DNA from: a virus
Lineage: Duplodnaviria > Caudoviricetes
IMG/VR virus record: IMGVR_UViG_3300043567_000723
Reading direction: 5' to 3' (one strand)
Length of the DNA stretch: 64,000 nt
Part shown: positions 18,309 through 47,821 of the stretch, piece by piece
Layout: the number at the start of each line of letters is the position of its first letter
Position numbering within the stretch: the first letter of the stretch is position 1
Made by a program: the position numbers and the translations under genes
The notes under the pieces: model-generated
Databases searched by the model: none
What the model was told of the DNA's origin: nothing
The model's input: only the letters and a program-made list of their open reading frames with translations

Positions 18309-18382
18309 GACCCCTTAGCTCAGCTGGTTAGAGCATCGGACTTTTAATCCGTTGGTCCTCGGTTCGAATCCGAGAGGGGTCA
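18309..18382 (+). tRNA. tRNA-Lys(UUU)
   Basis: Cloverleaf: GACCCCT/AGGGGTC acceptor, anticodon loop CT-TTT-AA, GGTTCGAATCC T arm; CCA not encoded. Confidence 0.95.
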
Positions 18383-18422
18383 CTGTTTGGGGGTTCGATT
18401 GTTTCACACAAGGATGAGTGAA

Positions 18423-18623
18423 ATGAATTGGGTAGTTATGCTTCTTATGTCGATCTTAATGCCAGTTGTGCAGCCGACTCTGCAAAATGGAGTACAGAAA
18501 ATGTCGGCTAAGATTCAGCAGGTTTCCCAACCAAGCCCTTATATTACGTACCACGAAGGGCGCTGGTGGAAGTTAGAGAACGGTCAGTGGTACGTCTGGC
18601 AGGAGAACAAAAATGCCAATTAG
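18423..18623 (+). CDS. Small exported protein with Trp/Tyr-rich tail
   Basis: Hydrophobic N-terminus; YITYHEGRWWKLENGQWYVWQ. Confidence 0.55.
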   Translation: MNWVVMLLMSILMPVVQPTLQNGVQKMSAKIQQVSQPSPYITYHEGRWWKLENGQWYVWQENKNAN

Positions 18624-18894
18624 TGCGCCGCTGTTTAATCTATATTTCACAGGTGAGTACGACAAGATTCCGACTCGTATGCAGACGGCCCTTACGCGAT
18701 ACGTCACCGACCGCGTGGCTCCCGGTAACTTCCTGCAAGCGGTCATTAAGAACGACCTGCGCGACGCCTGTGGCCGCGCAGATAGTGAGAATCTGCCGCT
18801 GTTACCCCTGTACGTTAAATGGCTTTACAACGTCGCTCCGGGCGGCTGTTGGGGTAGCCTAGACAACTACAAGGCGTGGATGGCTGGTGAGTAA
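18613..18894 (+). CDS. Hypothetical phage protein
   Basis: 93-aa ORF with AGGAG RBS; PGNFLQAVIKNDL...WGS motif. Confidence 0.65.
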   Translation: MPISAPLFNLYFTGEYDKIPTRMQTALTRYVTDRVAPGNFLQAVIKNDLRDACGRADSENLPLLPLYVKWLYNVAPGGCWGSLDNYKAWMAGE

Positions 18895-18924
18895 TCTATA
18901 AGCCTTTTTGCGTAAAAAGTTGCC

Positions 18925-18997
18925 GGGATCGTAGCCCAATGGCAGAGGCAAAGGACTTAAAATCCTTCAAGTGTGGGTTCGAGTCCCACCGATCCTA
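18925..18997 (+). tRNA. tRNA-Leu(UAA) with short variable loop
   Basis: GGGATCG/CGATCCT acceptor, AAGGA-CT-TAA-AA-TCCTT, 5-nt variable region CAAGT, GTGGG-TTCGAGT-CCCAC. Confidence 0.9.
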
Positions 18998-19020
18998 ATG
19001 GTTGATCAAAAGGAGTTTTC

Positions 19021-19371
19021 ATGCCACAAGACACGGTTAAATACAAACCGGTTTGTTGCTACCAGTGCGGAGAAACGTTTCGGTCGTATACGTTCAAAGA
19101 CGTGTACGACATGCGCATTGACGGCGTGATTCACAAAGTGCCCGTATACGCTGTCCCGTGCCGGCGTTGCGACGCCTGCGACATCGCGATAACGGACGCT
19201 GGTTCCGATGAGGCCGTGCAGTGGTCGTACAAAAAGTACCTCAACGAGCACGGATTAAACACGCCATGGCTGCGTTTCCGCCGCTGGATTCGTCGCCGTT
19301 GCCGAATCGCGTGCGACCGGTATAACTGGTACCGGCTGCGATTCGATAAATGGCGTGGCAAATATTCGTAG
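19021..19371 (+). CDS. MqsA/YgiT-type zinc-finger protein without HTH
   Basis: CYQCGE...KDVYDMRIDGVIHKVPVYAVPCRRCD spacing matches the YgiT-type Zn finger; AAGGAG RBS. Confidence 0.55.
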   Translation: MPQDTVKYKPVCCYQCGETFRSYTFKDVYDMRIDGVIHKVPVYAVPCRRCDACDIAITDAGSDEAVQWSYKKYLNEHGLNTPWLRFRRWIRRRCRIACDRYNWYRLRFDKWRGKYS

Positions 19372-19377
19372 CAACGT

Positions 19378-19451
19378 AGGCGCATAGCTCAATTGGTCAG
19401 AGCACCTGCTTTACACGCAGGGGGTTAGGGGTTCGAGTCCCTTTGCGCCTA
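19378..19451 (+). tRNA. tRNA-Val(UAC)
   Basis: AGGCGCA/TGCGCCT acceptor, CCTGC-TT-TAC-AC-GCAGG, GGTTCGAGTCC. Confidence 0.95.
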
Positions 19452-19515
19452 TTGCCCGGTGTGGGGCGTATTCGACAACAGCCGCGCACACCCGCGGTGT
19501 ATTCACGGAGGATTT

Positions 19516-19884
19516 ATGATCCGCATTTTCATGTGCCTGTGTCTGGTTGCGTCTGCTCTCACGGTTGAGGCGGCTCCCCGACGACGATATACCTACAACA
19601 CGACACCGGCAGCCTCGCCAGCGCGTGTGTCTGGGTATACGTCCACCTCCTCTATGCCGACGGGTAATACCGGTTCGGCACAGGGTGTGGCTGAAATACA
19701 GGCTTCGCGCGGCTACGTGGGCCACTTCGGTGGCAACAGTGGTTACGAGGGTTGCGGCTCCGGTTCGACGCCAGAGCAAGCCCTAAACAACTGCTGCTAT
19801 TCCAATAGCGGCATGGCAGTTGTGGATCAGGGCGTAGCCTGTGGCCGTAATGGCCGTTGGTACGCTTGCAAGCGGTACCGGTAA
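19516..19884 (+). CDS. Secreted Cys-containing protein, possibly truncated CAP/SCP-like
   Basis: GGAGG RBS, signal peptide, GHFGGNSGYEGCGSG...NNCCYSNSG...GVACGRNGRWYACKRY. Confidence 0.55.
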   Translation: MIRIFMCLCLVASALTVEAAPRRRYTYNTTPAASPARVSGYTSTSSMPTGNTGSAQGVAEIQASRGYVGHFGGNSGYEGCGSGSTPEQALNNCCYSNSGMAVVDQGVACGRNGRWYACKRYR

Positions 19885-19939
19885 TACTGGCTAATCGGCG
19901 GGCGCTGGAGGAAGCTCAAGCCTCTGGCGCCCGCCCCGC

Positions 19940-20010
19940 GGCCCGCGGAAACCGGTTGGCAAGCGAGTCTTATTAACTCGAAACGCGGGGTTCGACTCCT
20001 CGGCGGGCTA
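19940..20010 (+). tRNA. Atypical tRNA-Ile(UAU)-like gene (weak D arm, U at position 37)
   Basis: GGCCCGC/GCGGGCT acceptor, CGAGT-CT-TAT-TA-ACTCG anticodon arm, CGGGG-TTCGACT-CCTCG T arm; D region short with no clear stem. Confidence 0.65.
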
Positions 20011-20050
20011 TTGTTTGTTCTGTTTGTTATCGACTTTTATAGGAGTTAAC

Positions 20051-20212
20051 ATGCGCTACAAGAACGTAACGGCTGATGGTTCTTTTTTCGCCATTGTCAA
20101 ATGGGCAGAAACCAACAACGCGCATTACGACACGCGCGTTATAAATGGTCGGATACAGATTGGCATGTCGCCATATCACTGGCGTCGTGCTGAATATCAA
20201 GGTGCAGCATGA
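20051..20212 (+). CDS. Small hypothetical protein
   Basis: AGGAG RBS before ATG 20051; coupled to the next ORF. Confidence 0.5.
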   Translation: MRYKNVTADGSFFAIVKWAETNNAHYDTRVINGRIQIGMSPYHWRRAEYQGAA

Positions 20213-20394
20213 CACTTGAACGTGCGGCCGAGCTAGTTTCAGCGCTCCGCGTAGCTGAACCAAACTCATTAGCTGCGCCTGATTTGTTCTCTCACTTTGT
20301 GGATTATTTCAATCTGCAGGGAGAAAAAAAACTAACGCAATTTGCAGAGCTGTGCGGTTTTCTTATCGCTTGCGATGTTAGTCGCGTTGGTTGA
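20209..20394 (+). CDS. Small hypothetical protein
   Basis: ATGA overlap with the previous stop. Confidence 0.45.
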   Translation: MTLERAAELVSALRVAEPNSLAAPDLFSHFVDYFNLQGEKKLTQFAELCGFLIACDVSRVG

Positions 20395-20397
20395 ACG

Positions 20398-20470
20398 GGC
20401 CCCATCGTCTAGAGGCCTAGGACACCACCCTTTCACGGTGGATACCGGGGTTCGAATCCCCGTGGGGTCA
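20398..20470 (+). tRNA. tRNA-Glu(UUC)
   Basis: GGCCCCA/TGGGGTC acceptor, CCACC-CT-TTC-AC-GGTGG, GGTTCGAATCC. Confidence 0.95.
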
Positions 20471-20607
20471 TTGATGAGTAAAACCATTGAACTGTTCCGG
20501 CTGATCCCCGGCAGGAGGTAGTGAGGTTTTAAGTTCGATTTCCCGGTATGCCTATCCACGTGGCTCGTATATCGGAAGCGACCCCTAATCGACACTCATC
20601 AATTTTT

Positions 20608-20681
20608 AACTCGGTAGCCCAATTGGCAGAGGCGGTAGACTTAGGATCTACTTGTTGTGGGTTCGACTCCCACCCGGGTTA
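20608..20681 (+). tRNA. tRNA-Leu(UAG) with short variable loop
   Basis: AACTCGG/CCGGGTT acceptor, GTAGA-CT-TAG-GA-TCTAC, 5-nt variable region TTGTT, GTGGG-TTCGACT-CCCAC. Confidence 0.9.
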
Positions 20682-20683
20682 TT

Positions 20684-21254: not shown

Positions 21255-21596
21255 GGGGGCGTACTGGTATCGACGTATAGACGGAAACACACATTGCATT
21301 CCGTGGTTGATCGAGAGGCCACGTTAATACTCGATTAAATGTTAATTGGCACTTTCAACAGTGTCCCCGCTCTCGCTGCCTGAGCAGTGATCGGGTGAGG
21401 CGCGTGACCTCATCGCCCATCACGCTGGCCGACTGGAAGAAGTCTGACAGGCTGGACAGACAGCCAAAGATGGTGGTAGCCCACCTGACGCCGATAATCG
21501 GCTGGCTTTGTTCATTGTGTAAGCAACAATGAGACATGAATGTAGACGTGTGTGTGGAAACTATTACGGACGCGGGTTCGACTCCCGCCGCCTCCA
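21255..21596 (+). ncRNA. ssrA: tmRNA; tag reading frame 21348-21383 encodes (A)GTFNSVPALAA*
   Basis: 5-prime GGGGGCG...GGTATCGAC and 3-prime GGACGCGGGTTCGACTCCCGCCGCCTCCA tRNA-like domain; pk1-like CCGTGG/CCACG element; tag ends in the LAA degron. Confidence 0.95.
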
Positions 21597-21600
21597 TATA

Positions 21601-27122: not shown

Positions 27123-28493
27123 ATGCCATTTAGATCTGAAAAGCAACGGCGCTTTCTTTGGGCCGAGCATCCAGATATTGCCAAACGCTGGGCGCACGAG
27201 TATCCGCAGAAGAAAAAACTGCCCATGTACGCAGACGACAAGGATAAAACAAAAATGAACCGCGCATCAGACGTTAAAGCAGCCTGTGATAAGTATATGG
27301 CTCAAATTAAGTTAACAACCGGTCAGAATATTGACGTAAATCCAGTGTTAACAAAGCTTTACGGCAAGTTAAGTAAACAAGCGGATTCCACGACGGTTAA
27401 AATGACGATGCCGCAGGGGACCAAGCCAATGGCCGCGGGAGAAGAACCTGTGGAGCCAGCGAAAACCCAGCAAGATCCAGATTCGGGCTGCGTTACACCG
27501 AAAAAGCCTGAAAACATGATGCTTTCTAAACTCTCGGTTGTGCTTTCGCAGTCGATTATGCAAGCGCTTGAGAACGAAAAAGCCGAGGCAGAGGCCCGAA
27601 ACGCCCAACTTATGCCGGCGAACGCTGGAATTAAACGTTATGCTATGCCAGCTAATGGCACCCCGCCTCCGATGGGTATGGCTCAAAGCGCTGCTCCTGC
27701 TGCGCCCGCTGCTCCGGCAGACCCCGCTCAATCTGGCCAGCTGCCGCCTGTCGGTGGTGGTTCGAACCCGTCGGCGAACCCTATTAATTCCTATGGCGCT
27801 ATCTCTAGTAGCGGCGAAATTAATGGCAACGCAGCTTTCGGTGGCCCCAGCATTGGCAAGCTGGCTTCTTCCCCGGCGTGGCAGCGTAGTGCCGGTAAGA
27901 ATCCAGAAGGTGGCCTCAATGCCAAAGGCCGCGCCAGCTATAACAAAGCCACGGGCGGCAACCTCAAAGCCCCTGTGACGGAGAGTAATCCCACAGGCGA
28001 ACGGGCCTCGCGCCAGAACTCTTTTTGCTCAAGGATGTGTGGCATGAAAAAAGTAAACACCGGCGCTGAAACAAAGAAAGATCCTGATTCGCGCATTAAC
28101 AAATCTCTGCGCAAATGGAACTGCAAATGCTCTAGTGCGTACGAGTTTGGCAAGCAGGCTGGCATATTTAATAGTCTGGCTGGCTTAGTGGGCCGCGGCG
28201 CTACGGCTGCTGTGAAAGCTGCCCCGGTAGCTGCGCCGAAGTTAAATTTCGCAACAGCACATCCGTCTGTGTTAGGCCCACTTGCGTCTGCCCGAGGCCA
28301 AGCTTTACCGGCCGACCTCTGGGATGTACTGCACAAATGGAAAAACCCACGGCCAGCTGTAGCGCCCGCAAACAGGCTTCGCGTAGGCGGAAACCACTGG
28401 AATCGCTTTGGCGAGACTATGACCACACCAGAGCAGCAGCAGGCTTTAAGCGCAGCGACCCAGCGTTGGCGAGATGCTGCCGCGGCGAAATAA
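27123..28493 (+). CDS. Modular putative internal virion protein with K-x-A sites (includes a DUF6321-like module)
   Basis: MPFRSEKQRRFLW module; AWQRSAGKNPEGGLNAKGRASYN...SRINKSLRKWNC module; KAA, KQA, KLA and KQA motifs at the module borders. Confidence 0.7.
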   Translation: MPFRSEKQRRFLWAEHPDIAKRWAHEYPQKKKLPMYADDKDKTKMNRASDVKAACDKYMAQIKLTTGQNIDVNPVLTKLYGKLSKQADSTTVKMTMPQGTKPMAAGEEPVEPAKTQQDPDSGCVTPKKPENMMLSKLSVVLSQSIMQALENEKAEAEARNAQLMPANAGIKRYAMPANGTPPPMGMAQSAAPAAPAAPADPAQSGQLPPVGGGSNPSANPINSYGAISSSGEINGNAAFGGPSIGKLASSPAWQRSAGKNPEGGLNAKGRASYNKATGGNLKAPVTESNPTGERASRQNSFCSRMCGMKKVNTGAETKKDPDSRINKSLRKWNCKCSSAYEFGKQAGIFNSLAGLVGRGATAAVKAAPVAAPKLNFATAHPSVLGPLASARGQALPADLWDVLHKWKNPRPAVAPANRLRVGGNHWNRFGETMTTPEQQQALSAATQRWRDAAAAK

Positions 28494-42806: not shown

Positions 42807-43511
42807 ATGGCCACATCACGTCCAGTAAGACGAGCGGAAAAGAAAGCAAAGAAAAAAAACGACCAACAAGAACGGGCAAAGGCAGCGTTAGCGCCGTGTG
42901 AAATTGAGTGGCGCACAGACAGTCAGAAGCGCGCGTGGAAAACGCTGCACGATAATGACATCACGTTCTTGCTCGGCTCTGCTGGTTCGGGCAAGACGTT
43001 TCTTGCAATGGCCTACGCCATTAACGAGATTCTGGCTAAGCGCAAAAGCCAGATTATCTTGACGCGCCCCATCGTGGACGCGGGTGAAAAACTGGGATTT
43101 CTTCCCGGTTCGTTCGGCGAAAAAGTCAATCCATACATGCAGCCGCTGTATGACACGATGGACACGCTTTTGGGTAAGTTCAACGCCAAGCGCGAGTTTG
43201 TGAACAAAGCCATCGTGTTGGCGCCGCTGTGCTACATGCGTGGCCGGACGTTTAACGACTCGATCGTTGTGTTTGACGAAGCCCAAAACGCCACGTACAT
43301 GCAGCTCAAACTTCTGCTCACGCGTTTCGGGCAGAACACGCAAATGGTGATTACAGGCGACCCGCACCAGAGCGATTTGCCGTTTTCTCCGCCGCCGTTA
43401 AACGAAGTTGTTACGAAATTAAAGGGCGTTGCCAGTATAGATACTGTGCAATTTGCCCATAATGACGTCGTGCGGCATCCGATCGTCGCGGCGGTTCTAA
43501 AGAAGCTCTGA
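42807..43511 (+). CDS. phoH: PhoH-like ATPase
   Basis: GSAGSGKTFLA, LGFLPG, YMRGRTF, DEAQN, TGDPHQSDL, DVVRHPIV. Confidence 0.95.
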   Translation: MATSRPVRRAEKKAKKKNDQQERAKAALAPCEIEWRTDSQKRAWKTLHDNDITFLLGSAGSGKTFLAMAYAINEILAKRKSQIILTRPIVDAGEKLGFLPGSFGEKVNPYMQPLYDTMDTLLGKFNAKREFVNKAIVLAPLCYMRGRTFNDSIVVFDEAQNATYMQLKLLLTRFGQNTQMVITGDPHQSDLPFSPPPLNEVVTKLKGVASIDTVQFAHNDVVRHPIVAAVLKKL

Positions 43512-43526
43512 CGCATTGGCAAAGTA

Positions 43527-43555
43527 TTGTGCATTTTTCGTTTGCCGGCTAAACT
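43527..43555 (+). promoter_or_regulatory. Candidate sigma70-type promoter
   Basis: TTGTGC-17 nt-TAAACT upstream of the ferritin-like gene. Confidence 0.3.
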
Positions 43556-43617
43556 TCGCCGACAAGCGTCATTTGCATTGTCGCTATATGGTAAATACTT
43601 TTACGTGAGGGTTGCCC

Positions 43618-44091
43618 ATGACGTTGCCGCAGTTTTTAGAAATCATGAACAGTGATTTAGCGAACGAATGGACGCACTTGCAGTTCTATCTGTATCACGC
43701 AAGCGCTGTCACGGGCTTACACGCGCACGAGTACAAAGAATTTTTAACAGAATCAGCGCAAGGCGAACTGCAGCACGTGCAGGCGTTTTTGGACCGGTTA
43801 TTTGGCTTGAATTACGCGCAGCCGTCCCAGAGCGCCAAGCCATTTGCTGTATCCAGCCGCGTTGAAGATATCATTATCGGCGCCATAAAGCTCGAAGAAG
43901 AGGTCGTGCAGAACTACACGCAACGACTGCAGCAGCTGGATGAACTAGCCGCAGCGCATCCGGTGCAGTCGGCGTATCTTAAAGTGTTCTACGAAGACCA
44001 GTTACAAGACAGCTACGAAGACTGCGAACACTTACGGCGTATTTTAAAAAACGTGACTGGCAGTATAGAGCCACGAAAAACCGGAGATTGA
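43618..44091 (+). CDS. Ferritin/bacterioferritin-like di-iron protein
   Basis: LANEW..LQFY, ELQH, LEEEVVQNY and E..EH ligand spacing of a four-helix bundle. Confidence 0.8.
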   Translation: MTLPQFLEIMNSDLANEWTHLQFYLYHASAVTGLHAHEYKEFLTESAQGELQHVQAFLDRLFGLNYAQPSQSAKPFAVSSRVEDIIIGAIKLEEEVVQNYTQRLQQLDELAAAHPVQSAYLKVFYEDQLQDSYEDCEHLRRILKNVTGSIEPRKTGD

Positions 44092-44093
44092 GC

Positions 44094-44345
44094 TATGCGG
44101 GAGTGTTGCGGCTTGGCGACCAGAGTGCTGCTGCGAGCGGGCTACTCCCACCTGCTCTGCGCCTCTCTGGTAGTGACGCCGCAGAAACTCAGTTGTCCCG
44201 CTGAGTTTTGCACCACACTTGGATAGCCGTGGTGCCGGATACTGGTTGTCGGGTTTCAAACGAGTCCAAGCGCCTCCTTCGCCCCTACGCCATACGAGCA
44301 AAAACAGAGCACGAGCGGCTCCGTTGCCAGTATCCAGCCCGCATA
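44094..44345 (+). ncRNA. Unclassified large structured RNA candidate (about 250 nt) with possible pseudoknot
   Basis: Closing TATGCGGG/CCCGCATA; helices ACCAGAG/CTCTGGT, GAGCGGG/CCTGCTC, AAACTCAG/CTGAGTTT, CACCAC/GTGGTG, GGATACTGG/CCAGTATCC; loop CTTGGA complementary to TCCAAG. Strand not certain. Confidence 0.6.
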
Positions 44346-44372
44346 AAAAAGTGTTAAATAAAGTGTTACACC

Positions 44373-44678
44373 ATGTCACCGCAACGCATCGAAAACGAAA
44401 CGCGCGAAGAAATGCTGCGGCGTATTGATAACGAAATTCGGCGTGAGCGTCGTCTAGAGCGCTGGTTTTTGCGTTCGTTAATGACGTGGTTTTTAATCGT
44501 GGCGGCGTGGCACGTGTGGCCCTACCTGAGCGTCCCAGAGAACTGGCCCATTATGTTCACGTGCCTACGGGCTGTCATGCAAATTGCTGGTTGTGTGGCT
44601 GCGCTACTCGGGTTTCTTGTAACGCTCGCGTGGATTGGATCCGGCGGGCAGCTCTTTAAAGACGACCTGTACGAATAA
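44373..44678 (+). CDS. Two-TM membrane protein
   Basis: Charged N-terminus followed by two hydrophobic helices. Confidence 0.6.
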   Translation: MSPQRIENETREEMLRRIDNEIRRERRLERWFLRSLMTWFLIVAAWHVWPYLSVPENWPIMFTCLRAVMQIAGCVAALLGFLVTLAWIGSGGQLFKDDLYE

Positions 44679-44698
44679 ACAAAAGGAATTGTTTACGT

Positions 44699-45145
44699 AT
44701 GACCATTCATTCACAATCCAAATGGCCAGAAGCCGTGGCCATCGGAGCTGAGGGCGTTTCGTTAGCCATTGCAAAGATGCTGCGGCACAAGATCGTCCCG
44801 TGTGTGCCGATCATCGACATTGGCTACGACTTAGTGTCTGAATACGGCAGTGTCGTGAAACGCGTGCAGATTAAAGCGACCACGCTGATCAACGCGTCTC
44901 GGCCAGAATCCATGCGGTTTTCGCTGTCGAAGCACAAAGCCGGCCTGCACCGCAATGGCTCTTATGTTCCGTCCCAGCGGCGCGTGTATCACCCCAGCGA
45001 CGTTGATGTATTTATTTTTGTGCATGTGCGTTTAAAGAAATTTTACGTAGTGCCGGTCGCTGAGTTAGATTTCAGAAAGCACTACATTACGTTCAACGGC
45101 AAAAGCCCGTGGGCGGATGCTTGGCACGTGCTCAAGGAAGCATGA
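44699..45145 (+). CDS. PD-(D/E)xK endonuclease-like protein
   Basis: GAEG...YDLVSE...RVQIKAT...DVDVFIFV...FYVVP pattern. Confidence 0.75.
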
Positions 45146-45906: not shown

Positions 45907-46941
45907 ATGGCCAAGGGTTTAGACGTCGGGACATCGTTTATCGTACTGGCTTCGGACAGCCTCGAACCGATCAGCTACACCAGCGACGATCAGGCTGAAT
46001 TTATCAATTACAAAGATTTTCGTGACGCGTTCTACGTGATTAAGCCCACTACGCCAGTGGCCACGAAGATGATCGAAAAGGGCCTGCAGGGCAAAGTCTT
46101 CGTCAAGGACAACGACGGTGCTTTTATTCTGCTGGGACAAGACGCTATTGATAAAGCCATCGAGCGCAACGAGTCGGCCAAGCGACCTATGTATCGCGGC
46201 GTTGTGAGCCCCAAGGAAAAAGAAGCCAAGCGCGTACTGGCGTTTATCCTCAAAGAAGTTGCTGGTAAAGCCACCGAGCCAGATGAGAAGCTCGTGTTCT
46301 GCATTCCGGCGCAGCCCGTGGACCAAGAAGACGACGACTTTGACGTTGGTTATCACGAAGACGTGGTCAAAGCAGTCTTGGCCGAACAGGGCTATACTGC
46401 GCGGGCTATTAACGAAGCCGAGGCGCTGTGCTACTCAGAGCTAGCCAACGATGACTACACGGGCATTGGGCTTTCGTGGGGCGCTGGCATGGTCAACGTG
46501 TGCGTGATGCTCAACGGCGAGCCGACTGTGCTGTTTTCGACCACGAAGTCTGGCGACTGGATTGATCGCATGACCGCCGTGGCGACAAACGAGCCAGACT
46601 CGGTTGTGCAGGCTGAGAAAGAGCAGGGCGAGTTCACGATTGGCGAGCCAAACGAGAACGTGATTCTGGCCGCTGTTAGCTCGTACTATGAGCGCCTTAT
46701 TGACTACACCACGAAGCAATTAGCGGCAGCGCTAAGCAATCACAAGGCGTTGCCGAAGTTCAAAGAGCCGATTTTGATAGCAATGGCGGGCGGCACGACT
46801 AAAGCCGCGGGCTTTGTGGAAATGTTCCGGCGCAAGCTCGAAGAGAATAATTTTCCGCTGCCAGTGAAAGAAGTCCGGCACGCCTACGACCCGCTGCACG
46901 CTGTCGCGCGTGGCTGTCTCATTGCTGCCAAGATTCTCTAA
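45907..46941 (+). CDS. Actin-like (ASKHA) ATPase
   Basis: GLDVGTS (phosphate 1), AINEAEA (connect 1), GLSWGAGMVNV (phosphate 2), AMAGGTT (adenosine), DPLHAVARG (connect 2). Confidence 0.85.
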   Translation: MAKGLDVGTSFIVLASDSLEPISYTSDDQAEFINYKDFRDAFYVIKPTTPVATKMIEKGLQGKVFVKDNDGAFILLGQDAIDKAIERNESAKRPMYRGVVSPKEKEAKRVLAFILKEVAGKATEPDEKLVFCIPAQPVDQEDDDFDVGYHEDVVKAVLAEQGYTARAINEAEALCYSELANDDYTGIGLSWGAGMVNVCVMLNGEPTVLFSTTKSGDWIDRMTAVATNEPDSVVQAEKEQGEFTIGEPNENVILAAVSSYYERLIDYTTKQLAAALSNHKALPKFKEPILIAMAGGTTKAAGFVEMFRRKLEENNFPLPVKEVRHAYDPLHAVARGCLIAAKIL

Positions 46942-47587: not shown

Positions 47588-47596
47588 TGTTAAAAT
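47588..47596 (+). promoter_or_regulatory. Extended -10 element (TGnTAAAAT) just upstream of a structured RNA candidate
   Basis: TGTTAAAAT ends 6 nt before the closing helix at 47603. Confidence 0.4.
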
Positions 47597-47602
47597 TGAG
47601 GT

Positions 47603-47821
47603 GTGTCAAAAGTTAGTCGTGGTGGTCGACTGGTTAGGCGTTTCTTCTGCGGCATGGATGCGGCAGGGGTTACAGGTTCCGTGGTCAGATTTTGTCGGGC
47701 TCACGGGCGGAGGAGCAGCAAATGCCACACGGGATAATTTATATCCTTGAAAGTTGCTGCGGAACCGCGGCTTCGGCCGTGGTAGGGCCTGCGGACAGGG
47801 GATCGCAGGGGCTTTTGACAC
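47603..47821 (+). ncRNA. Unclassified large structured RNA candidate (219 nt)
   Basis: Perfect 10-bp closing helix GTGTCAAAAG/CTTTTGACAC; internal AGTCG/CGACT, GGTTCCG/CGGAACC, GCAGCAA/TTGCTGC, GGATA/TATCC, GCGGC-TTCG-GCCGT, CCTGCG/CGCAGG. Confidence 0.65.

Follow-up and report, generated by a model that had tools for sequence, protein, structure and literature searches.

Results

Genes and features at the locus

The window, by which we mean the whole 64,000-nt stretch of DNA that was analysed, is part of a 157.5-kb IMG/VR virus record of lake-water origin. On its + strand, at 44096-44343, lies a structured RNA gene of ~248 nt whose pairing reaches 44094-44345 in this phage; it follows a gene for a ferritin-like protein and precedes one for a small predicted membrane protein, beyond which lies a PD-(D/E)XK endonuclease gene (Table 1). 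We consider it very likely that 44096-44343 encodes a real, new, + strand structured non-coding RNA.

The window also encodes five tRNAs, a tmRNA and a further tRNA-Asn, the tmRNA (21255-21599, tag GTFNSVPALAA) adjoining the five-tRNA cluster (18309-20682). Further downstream, an actin-like protein is encoded at 45907-46941 (Pfam Volactin PF25216, E = 1.3e-61) and shares 78-83% identity with its counterparts in relatives, whether or not these carry the RNA. A second candidate intergenic RNA, at 47588-47821, is conserved in 22 related loci by nhmmer, RNA-less phages included, and has no Rfam match at the gathering score.

Table 1. Coordinates of the RNA, its elements and its neighbours (window positions, except where a locus is named).
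Feature	Position	Strand	Evidence and remarks
Ferritin-like protein gene, upstream neighbour	43612..44091	+	Pfam PF00210, E = 2.4e-10; stop codon 5 nt before P1
Whole structured RNA	44096..44343	+	End-to-end homolog alignment, consensus fold, metatranscriptome contigs 44103-44299 and 44112-44295
P1 5' strand GCGGG	44097..44101	+	Pairs with 44338-44342; 5 pairs, 2 double-changed (GC<->AU at two positions), 98% paired, n=23
J1/2 purine-rich linker	44102..44106	+	AGAGU/AAAGU in most homologs, AGUGU here; columns nearly invariant (alignments A4, A8)
P2 long arm with internal loops	44107..44183	+	Basal and apical stems covary
P3 hairpin, sequence variable	44184..44209	+	Double changes in 8/9 pairs
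P4 hairpin GCACCAC/GUGGUGC	44210..44235	+	Loop 44218-44224 CUUGGAU is the pseudoknot 5' strand, then invariant AGCC
P5 5' strand GGAUACUGGU	44237..44246	+	Pairs with 44326-44335 (10-bp helix); 7-8 pairs double-changed; terminal U-G invariant
Conserved core within P5	44247..44300	+	Invariant columns in alignments A4, A6, A8
Pseudoknot 3' strand GUCCAAG	44264..44270	+	Inside P5 domain; complementary to P4 loop
P6 hairpin	44303..44325	+	Stem 44303-44310/44318-44325; 5-6/8 pairs double-changed
P5 3' strand GCCAGUAUCC	44326..44335	+	Partner of 44237-44246
P1 3' strand CCCGC	44338..44342	+	U-rich tract next in most homologs, absent in window
Small predicted membrane protein gene, downstream neighbour	44373..44678	+	Not found in relatives
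PD-(D/E)XK endonuclease gene	44699..45145	+	Pfam PF11645, E = 5.5e-9; sporadic near RNA
tRNA-Asn(GTT)/tRNA-Ser(TGA) in slot of RNA-less relatives	L004 3684-3755; L012 3652-3724; L020 3492-3564; L040 3451-3539; L046 3665-3753		

The RNA recurs in a lineage of freshwater phages

Relatives of the locus were collected with the ferritin-like protein as search handle, which yielded 50 related viral loci, 18 of them with a recognizable gap sequence. Two degenerate DNA patterns taken from invariant stretches were searched as well, with confirmation by a profile and by a covariance model (R1). Altogether ~30 distinct RNA sequences were found on more than 40 viral and metagenome contigs, their carriers being ~200-kb freshwater phages. 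The downstream 101-aa protein led to no relatives, and a blastn search of 43600-44700 against 50,697 deposited phage genomes gave no match. A pattern scan of 185,579 prokaryote genomes (one per species) returned 38 matches, only one of which was real, a phage-like contig binned into a metagenome-assembled genome (L109); the remaining matches were at chance level, so that no cellular homolog was found among these genomes. We conclude that the locus belongs to an uncatalogued family of structured non-coding RNAs of 220-290 nt, present in single copy per genome in a lineage of ~200-kb freshwater phages. Each of six complete ~200-kb relatives carries exactly one copy. A further complete close relative (G002) carries none, from which it follows that the RNA is dispensable.

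The homologs comprise a window-like subgroup of ~250 nt, a shorter one with reduced P2, one with an extra P5 hairpin (subgroup D) and a strongly divergent member, L179. Subgroup D was left out of the seed alignment, since MAFFT misplaced its extra hairpin (alignment A5) and model R1 took that hairpin for P4. The divergent member, from a 210.6-kb phage (L179 7660-7940 on the - strand, equivalent to G013 about 82249-82530), keeps P1, P5, P6 with its CGAGCG loop, and CGAGCA, and differs in the interior between P5 and P6. It has neither PhoH nor ferritin as a neighbour and should be useful for defining a minimal core.

A five-way junction with a pseudoknotted 3' core

P1 closes a five-way junction from which emerge the long P2 arm, hairpins P3 and P4 and the P5/P6 core. 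The 5' half of the molecule (P2 arm and P3 hairpin) is variable, whereas the 3' half, in which the P4 loop pairs into the P5 domain and which also holds P5 and P6, is highly conserved. A first-pass annotation, made from sequence alone, had described the whole intergenic gap as folded, with an 8-bp closing helix, at least five internal helices and a predicted pseudoknot or kissing loop. Each of these elements is present where that annotation had placed it. The closing helix does have 8 bp in this phage (TATGCGGG, 44094-44101, with CCCGCATA, 44338-44345), but only 5-6 bp of it are conserved across the family. The internal helices are accounted for by P2 to P6, all located in the gap, and the predicted pseudoknot is both present and covarying.

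In the 5' half, the apical loop of P2 (44142-44150) holds a conserved ACUCCC, and the P3 position is a hairpin in every subgroup despite unrelated sequences. An alternative fold in which the 5' strand GGGAG pairs with the apical CUCCC of P2 was rejected, as it performed no better than shuffled 5' strands and did not track the G>A change in P1; a short tertiary contact between the two remains possible, being neither supported nor excluded.

The pseudoknot joins loop CTTGGAT (44218-44224) to the complementary GTCCAAG (44264-44270). It is present, with 5-8 bp, in all homologs examined, and its compensatory variants include CUUGG/CCAAG, UCGGA/UCCGA, CCGGAU/AUCCGG, UCAGACA/UGUCUGA and UUGAGCU/AGUUCAA. 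Within P5, the core contains P5a (44247-44249 with 44298-44300) and a pairing of GGGU (44251-44254) with GCCC (44281-44284). Because these positions are almost invariant, both pairings are compatible with the data but unproven. The nearly invariant unpaired strands of the 3' half are GGGUU, the joining strands of the P5 core (UUCGCCCC.ACG and ACGAGCA) and the 7-nt loop of P6, ACGAGCG (44311-44317). In this compact pseudoknotted core over 50 positions, a large share of them unpaired, are invariant among phages with neighbour proteins only 45-60% identical. A search within the window for a trans target of the invariant UUCGCCCCUAC strand found none.

Structure is under selection on the + strand transcript

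Folding energy alone is only modestly unusual, with z scores relative to shuffled sequences of -3.2 (+ strand) and -3.8 (- strand), and the case therefore rests on comparison with relatives. RNAalifold applied to 14 full-length homologs predicted 70 pairs, half of which (35/70) were double-changed, with P1 to P6 all covered. For a hand-set structure of 37 pairs in 23 homologs, 97.9% of cells were paired, compared with 32-51% when partners were slid; double changes occurred in 19 of the 37 pairs, and none of 500 shuffles reached any of these measures. The 3' domain taken by itself (18 sequences) was 98.7% paired, with double changes at 15/33 pairs. At the nucleotide level the RNA is 79-85% identical and its 3' domain 84-90%, against 63-70% for the adjacent ferritin gene. 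This comparative evidence is decisive: the RNA structure is under selection.

The strand can be assigned from wobble pairs. Two U-G pairs are invariant or nearly so (23/23 and 22/23 sequences) and G-U accounts for ~9% of all pair cells in the 23 sequences. On the - strand these would be A-C mismatches, which places the selection on the + strand transcript.

The gap is overlapped by ORFs of 43-111 aa, among them a 111-aa - strand ORF spanning it (44044-44379) and short + strand ORFs, and both strands fold, so that a protein-coding sequence or a signal acting at the DNA level, such as an origin or packaging site, had to be considered. Against this explanation, no reading frame is open in all homologs, each frame having stops in some of them, and in three homologs (L041, L071 and L054) all six frames are interrupted by stops. 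Homolog lengths run from 223 to 293 nt with differences that are not multiples of three, and even the best-aligned part has 1-nt indels. The 111-aa ORF has no Pfam or PHROG match, and none was found for the other ORFs. The wobble asymmetry, together with contigs from RNA libraries, points to a + strand RNA. The RNA does not code for protein, and the coding or DNA-signal explanation as a whole is all but ruled out.

No detectable relation to known RNA families

None of the 4227 models of Rfam 15 matched the site, either at the gathering score over the whole window or at E<=10 for 43900-44500 and nine divergent homologs, the sole low-score match being a chance 25-nt L31-leader (E = 4). The models without a match at the site include RNase P (bacterial A/B, archaeal and type T), tmRNA, tRNA, Intron_gpI, riboswitches, GOLLD, ROOL, HEARO, OLE and raiA. 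ARAGORN likewise found no tRNA or tmRNA at the RNA itself, only elsewhere or adjoining the RNA in relatives. As far as Rfam models reach, the family is new.

We nonetheless considered whether it might be a diverged member of a known family missed by these models, such as RNase P RNA, tmRNA, a tRNA-like element, a group I intron, GOLLD or ROOL. In favour of this are GGAAAGUC-like words at the 5' end of some homologs, the tRNAs and tmRNA of the phage, and the position of the RNA in a slot used for tRNAs. Against it stand the failure of every model on ten family members and the nature of the helix that follows the GGAAAGU word: the strand after P1 pairs locally, ~70 nt downstream, in a covariation-supported base of P2, and there is no long-range P4 of the kind formed by CR-I and CR-V in RNase P RNA, which we therefore rejected. 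The first-pass annotation had also discounted RNase P, and rightly so; the RNase P-like words that it had nevertheless noted (GAGTCC and AACAGAG) found no support. A group I intron was rejected too, there being no Intron_gpI match and the flanking ORFs being complete, separate genes. We regard a diverged known family as very improbable.

The main proposal of the first-pass annotation, a new large phage non-coding RNA, is well supported, since the three checks that could have refuted it all failed to do so: there was no known-family match for the window or nine divergent homologs, no conserved reading frame among homologs, and compensatory change was abundant, pseudoknot included. Its further suggestion of a ribozyme remains only a possibility, in the absence of catalysis data.

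We found no published description of the RNA. In a search for conserved structures between the genes of IMG/VR viruses, Fremin, Bhatt and Kyrpides (2023; PMC10690425) obtained more than 10,000 unnamed candidates. These viral candidate structured RNAs come from the same collection as the present one, and the present family could be among them; the main text of that paper mentions neither ferritin, PhoH nor jumbo phages, and its candidate tables were not covered by our search.

The RNA occupies a slot for stable RNA genes

The common gene order is a Gly/Ala-rich protein, PhoH, optional genes, ferritin and then the RNA, the ferritin-like gene being syntenic beside the RNA in most loci. Gaps between the RNA and flanking same-strand ORFs are only 0-45 nt, too short to accommodate a separate promoter, and consensus and terminator scans revealed neither a sigma-70 promoter nor an intrinsic terminator for the + strand RNA.

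In RNA-less relatives the ferritin-like gene is directly followed by tRNA-Asn(GTT) or tRNA-Ser(TGA) (Table 1). Two RNA-bearing loci combine both, tRNA-Ser(TGA) beginning ~8 nt past the RNA 3' end (L071 2929-3016; L054 8814-8901, - strand) to give an RNA-tRNA tandem. RNase P cleavage at the tRNA would by itself make the RNA 3' end there. We infer that the site after the ferritin-like gene is a swap-in slot for stable RNA genes.

The gene downstream of the RNA differs from phage to phage, encoding a dCMP deaminase, an unknown 111-aa protein, a methyltransferase/glycosyltransferase, ferritin, a membrane protein or tRNA-Ser. In the window-like subgroup (L026 3746-4231 and equivalents in L028, L029, L033 and L056) a dCMP/cytidine deaminase follows the RNA directly, its start codon lacking a recognizable Shine-Dalgarno sequence in most of these phages. 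In subgroup D the RNA lies upstream of the ferritin gene, in its 5' leader.

These arrangements bear on whether the RNA is a cis regulator of the next gene, that is, a riboswitch, attenuator or translational control element with the P1 3' strand and U-tract as its platform. Such a role would suit the U-rich run found immediately after P1 in most homologs, the start codon that many of them have 10-25 nt further on, often without a Shine-Dalgarno sequence, and the leader position in subgroup D. However, the downstream genes are functionally unrelated, one being a tRNA, and this variety makes a leader of one gene or a riboswitch unlikely; a riboswitch was also rejected by position, as the RNA has no constant place ahead of functionally related genes. 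The window lacks the U-tract altogether, no terminator is predicted at the 3' end, and RNA libraries show the RNA without the downstream gene. We therefore consider cis regulation improbable.

Between the RNA and the next start codon, the window has a tandem direct repeat of AAAGTGTTA (44348-44368; two copies, 12-nt period), preceded by an A-run where relatives have the U-run. A role for AAAGTGTTA as a recurring promoter word was rejected, since it has no other occurrence in the window.

A PD-(D/E)XK gene lies near the RNA in four phages of two subgroups. Homologs of the PF11645 endonuclease are found 156-850 nt from the RNA in L055 (401-1099), L067 (7280-7756) and G004 (190724-191137), and another homolog occurs in the RNA-less G001 (117928-118326). 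In L067 and L055 the gene occupies the position that the ferritin gene has in other phages. PF11645 includes a group I intron-encoded homing endonuclease. The gene probably encodes a free-standing homing endonuclease and looks like an independently mobile element of the PhoH/ferritin/RNA hot spot, an inference from its presence in an RNA-less relative.

A phyletic profile of the ORFs of G000 compared the RNA-bearing G009, G004 and G013 with the RNA-less G002 and G001, and has little power, the RNA-less side consisting of two genomes, one of them incomplete. Six plausible ORFs co-occur with the RNA, none of which has a Pfam or PHROG match. One of the six, a 134-aa ORF outside the window (G000 27700-28104, +), is present in 3/3 RNA-bearing and 0/2 RNA-less genomes and is a weak co-occurrence lead.

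Sequence of the RNA is found in freshwater metatranscriptomes

Among public runs containing the RNA sequence are two freshwater metatranscriptomes, produced by separate studies (2017 and 2023). One holds 64% and the other 40% of the sampled RNA words; only 7% of the words from the surrounding 2.2 kb are present in the former. Against 43400-45000 each run yielded one contig, of 184 nt (44112-44295, identical to the window) and of 197 nt (44103-44299, word depth 63), both entirely internal to the RNA, and neither metatranscriptome gave a contig from the flanks (43400-44100 and 44350-45000). The 197-nt contig differs from the window at three positions, all C>U (44157, 44167 and 44179), and each variant turns a predicted G-C pair of P2 into G-U (fold pairs 40-62, 28-72 and 16-84). 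Two further runs (X24 and X26) were excluded from the expression and habitat evidence, their kind being uncertain and probably DNA.

The contigs end inside the conserved ACGAGC, ~45 nt short of the predicted 3' end; this may reflect assembly or priming bias, or may be a weak hint of a cut. We consider it likely that the RNA is expressed as a stable + strand species. The evidence is good but circumstantial, in that contigs from RNA libraries are no proof of transcription and give no ends, strand or level, and DNA carry-over is not formally excluded.

The same data could be explained by passive RNA stabilization, in which a tightly folded block halts exonucleases and shields the operon mRNA, the library fragment being its decay-resistant remnant. 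The embedding of the RNA between genes without its own promoter and the recovery of the structured part alone from RNA libraries both favour this. Yet stable helices alone would suffice for a roadblock, which accounts for neither the dozens of invariant unpaired nucleotides nor the covarying pseudoknot, and the position of the RNA relative to the ferritin gene flips between subgroups. A purely passive element is for us an unlikely explanation.

Discussion

A processed, trans-acting stable RNA as the favoured reading

The reading that we prefer, as somewhat more likely than not (probability ~0.55) and without any experiment or raw-read mapping to define the ends, strand or level of the transcript, is that of a processed, trans-acting stable phage RNA. 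The RNA would be co-transcribed with the same-strand PhoH/ferritin gene block, as inferred from the lack of room for its own promoter. It would then be cut out and accumulate as a stable RNA, like the tRNAs that fill the same slot in relatives, and would act in trans rather than on one particular neighbour gene. Its rigid, conserved, pseudoknotted 3' core may bind a conserved partner, which could be a protein of the host or the phage, another RNA or a small ligand.

Some of the evidence speaks against this reading. The U-tract after P1 and the nearby downstream start codon would also suit a cis-acting element, and a structure this stable could persist merely as a remnant of operon mRNA decay. 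The contig ends short of the predicted 3' end and the lack of the RNA in G002 count against it as well. No partner emerged from the analysis, the phyletic profile having given only the six unannotated ORFs.

A catalytic or ligand-binding RNA, whether a self-excising ribozyme, a ribozyme acting on tRNA or other RNA, or a large aptamer, would sharpen the main reading without conflicting with it. Unpaired nucleotides conserved to this degree are more usual in catalytic or ligand-binding RNAs than in simple protein sponges, and the core has them in abundance despite the divergence of neighbour proteins. Multi-helix junctions of this size and complexity are typical of ribozymes and large aptamers. 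The RNA also sits exactly at gene borders within an operon, and the contig ends at 44295 and 44299 give the weak hint of a cut already mentioned. On the other side, there is no match to a known ribozyme or riboswitch model, the data do not point to any cleavage site, ligand or substrate, and the contig ends may reflect assembly and priming bias only. As a specific explanation it is unlikely on present evidence. A broader and bolder proposal, that the family is a new large functional RNA class with a ribozyme or a high-affinity ligand- or protein-binding core, can be entertained as a possibility. Few RNA classes combine many helices with a pseudoknot and dozens of invariant unpaired nucleotides, and those found earlier proved to be ribozymes, riboswitches or ribonucleoprotein cores. 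If this proposal were true, freshwater jumbo phages would put an RNA from a tRNA slot to use during infection, perhaps in RNA processing or in intercepting a host factor or signal, and the family would take its place beside the few complex-fold RNAs (among them RNase P, OLE, GOLLD and ROOL) that opened new biochemistry.

The existence of the structured RNA is unusually well supported for a find made from sequence alone: more than 35 pairs covary, as does the pseudoknot, the natural variants leave pairing intact, and lake RNA libraries contain the sequence. The host phages are uncultured jumbo phages with their own RNA polymerase, tRNAs and tmRNA; since they bring their own RNA machinery, the RNA may be another phage-encoded piece of it. 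It is small enough for direct work in vitro without culture of a host and is a straightforward candidate for an Rfam family.

Comparison with known systems

Bacterial RNase P RNA resembles the present RNA in that P1 joins the 5' and 3' ends of a multi-helix pseudoknotted fold, and some homologs add a GGAAAGU-like word after P1; the context is rich in tRNA genes. Unlike bacterial RNase P RNA, the present RNA has no specificity domain and is ~100 nt shorter than the smallest bacterial examples. The aptamers of lysine and cobalamin riboswitches share with it a closing P1, a five-way junction, a loop-to-internal tertiary pairing and invariant junction nucleotides, and a AGAGGCGC-like word after P1 in some homologs recalls large riboswitch aptamers. 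It differs from the lysine and cobalamin aptamers in having no Rfam match and no coherent downstream gene set.

Phage T4 species 1 and 2 (RNA C and D), two stable RNAs whose function is unknown, are encoded among tRNA genes, and the tRNA-processing machinery frees them from a shared transcript. There is no homology between them and the present RNA; the T4 RNAs are shorter, at about 120-140 nt, and simpler, and processing of the present RNA is inferred only.

GOLLD and ROOL are orphan, elaborately folded phage and prophage non-coding RNAs, often beside tRNA genes, that came from lake metagenomes. Long-range or kissing-loop contacts form part of their structures (Kretsch et al. preprint, 10.1101/2024.12.08.627333). 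The present RNA matches neither of their Rfam models in sequence or structure, and the present data give no indication of multimers. It is, like them, an orphan, folded and phage-borne RNA, of 220-290 nt as against about 580-800 nt.
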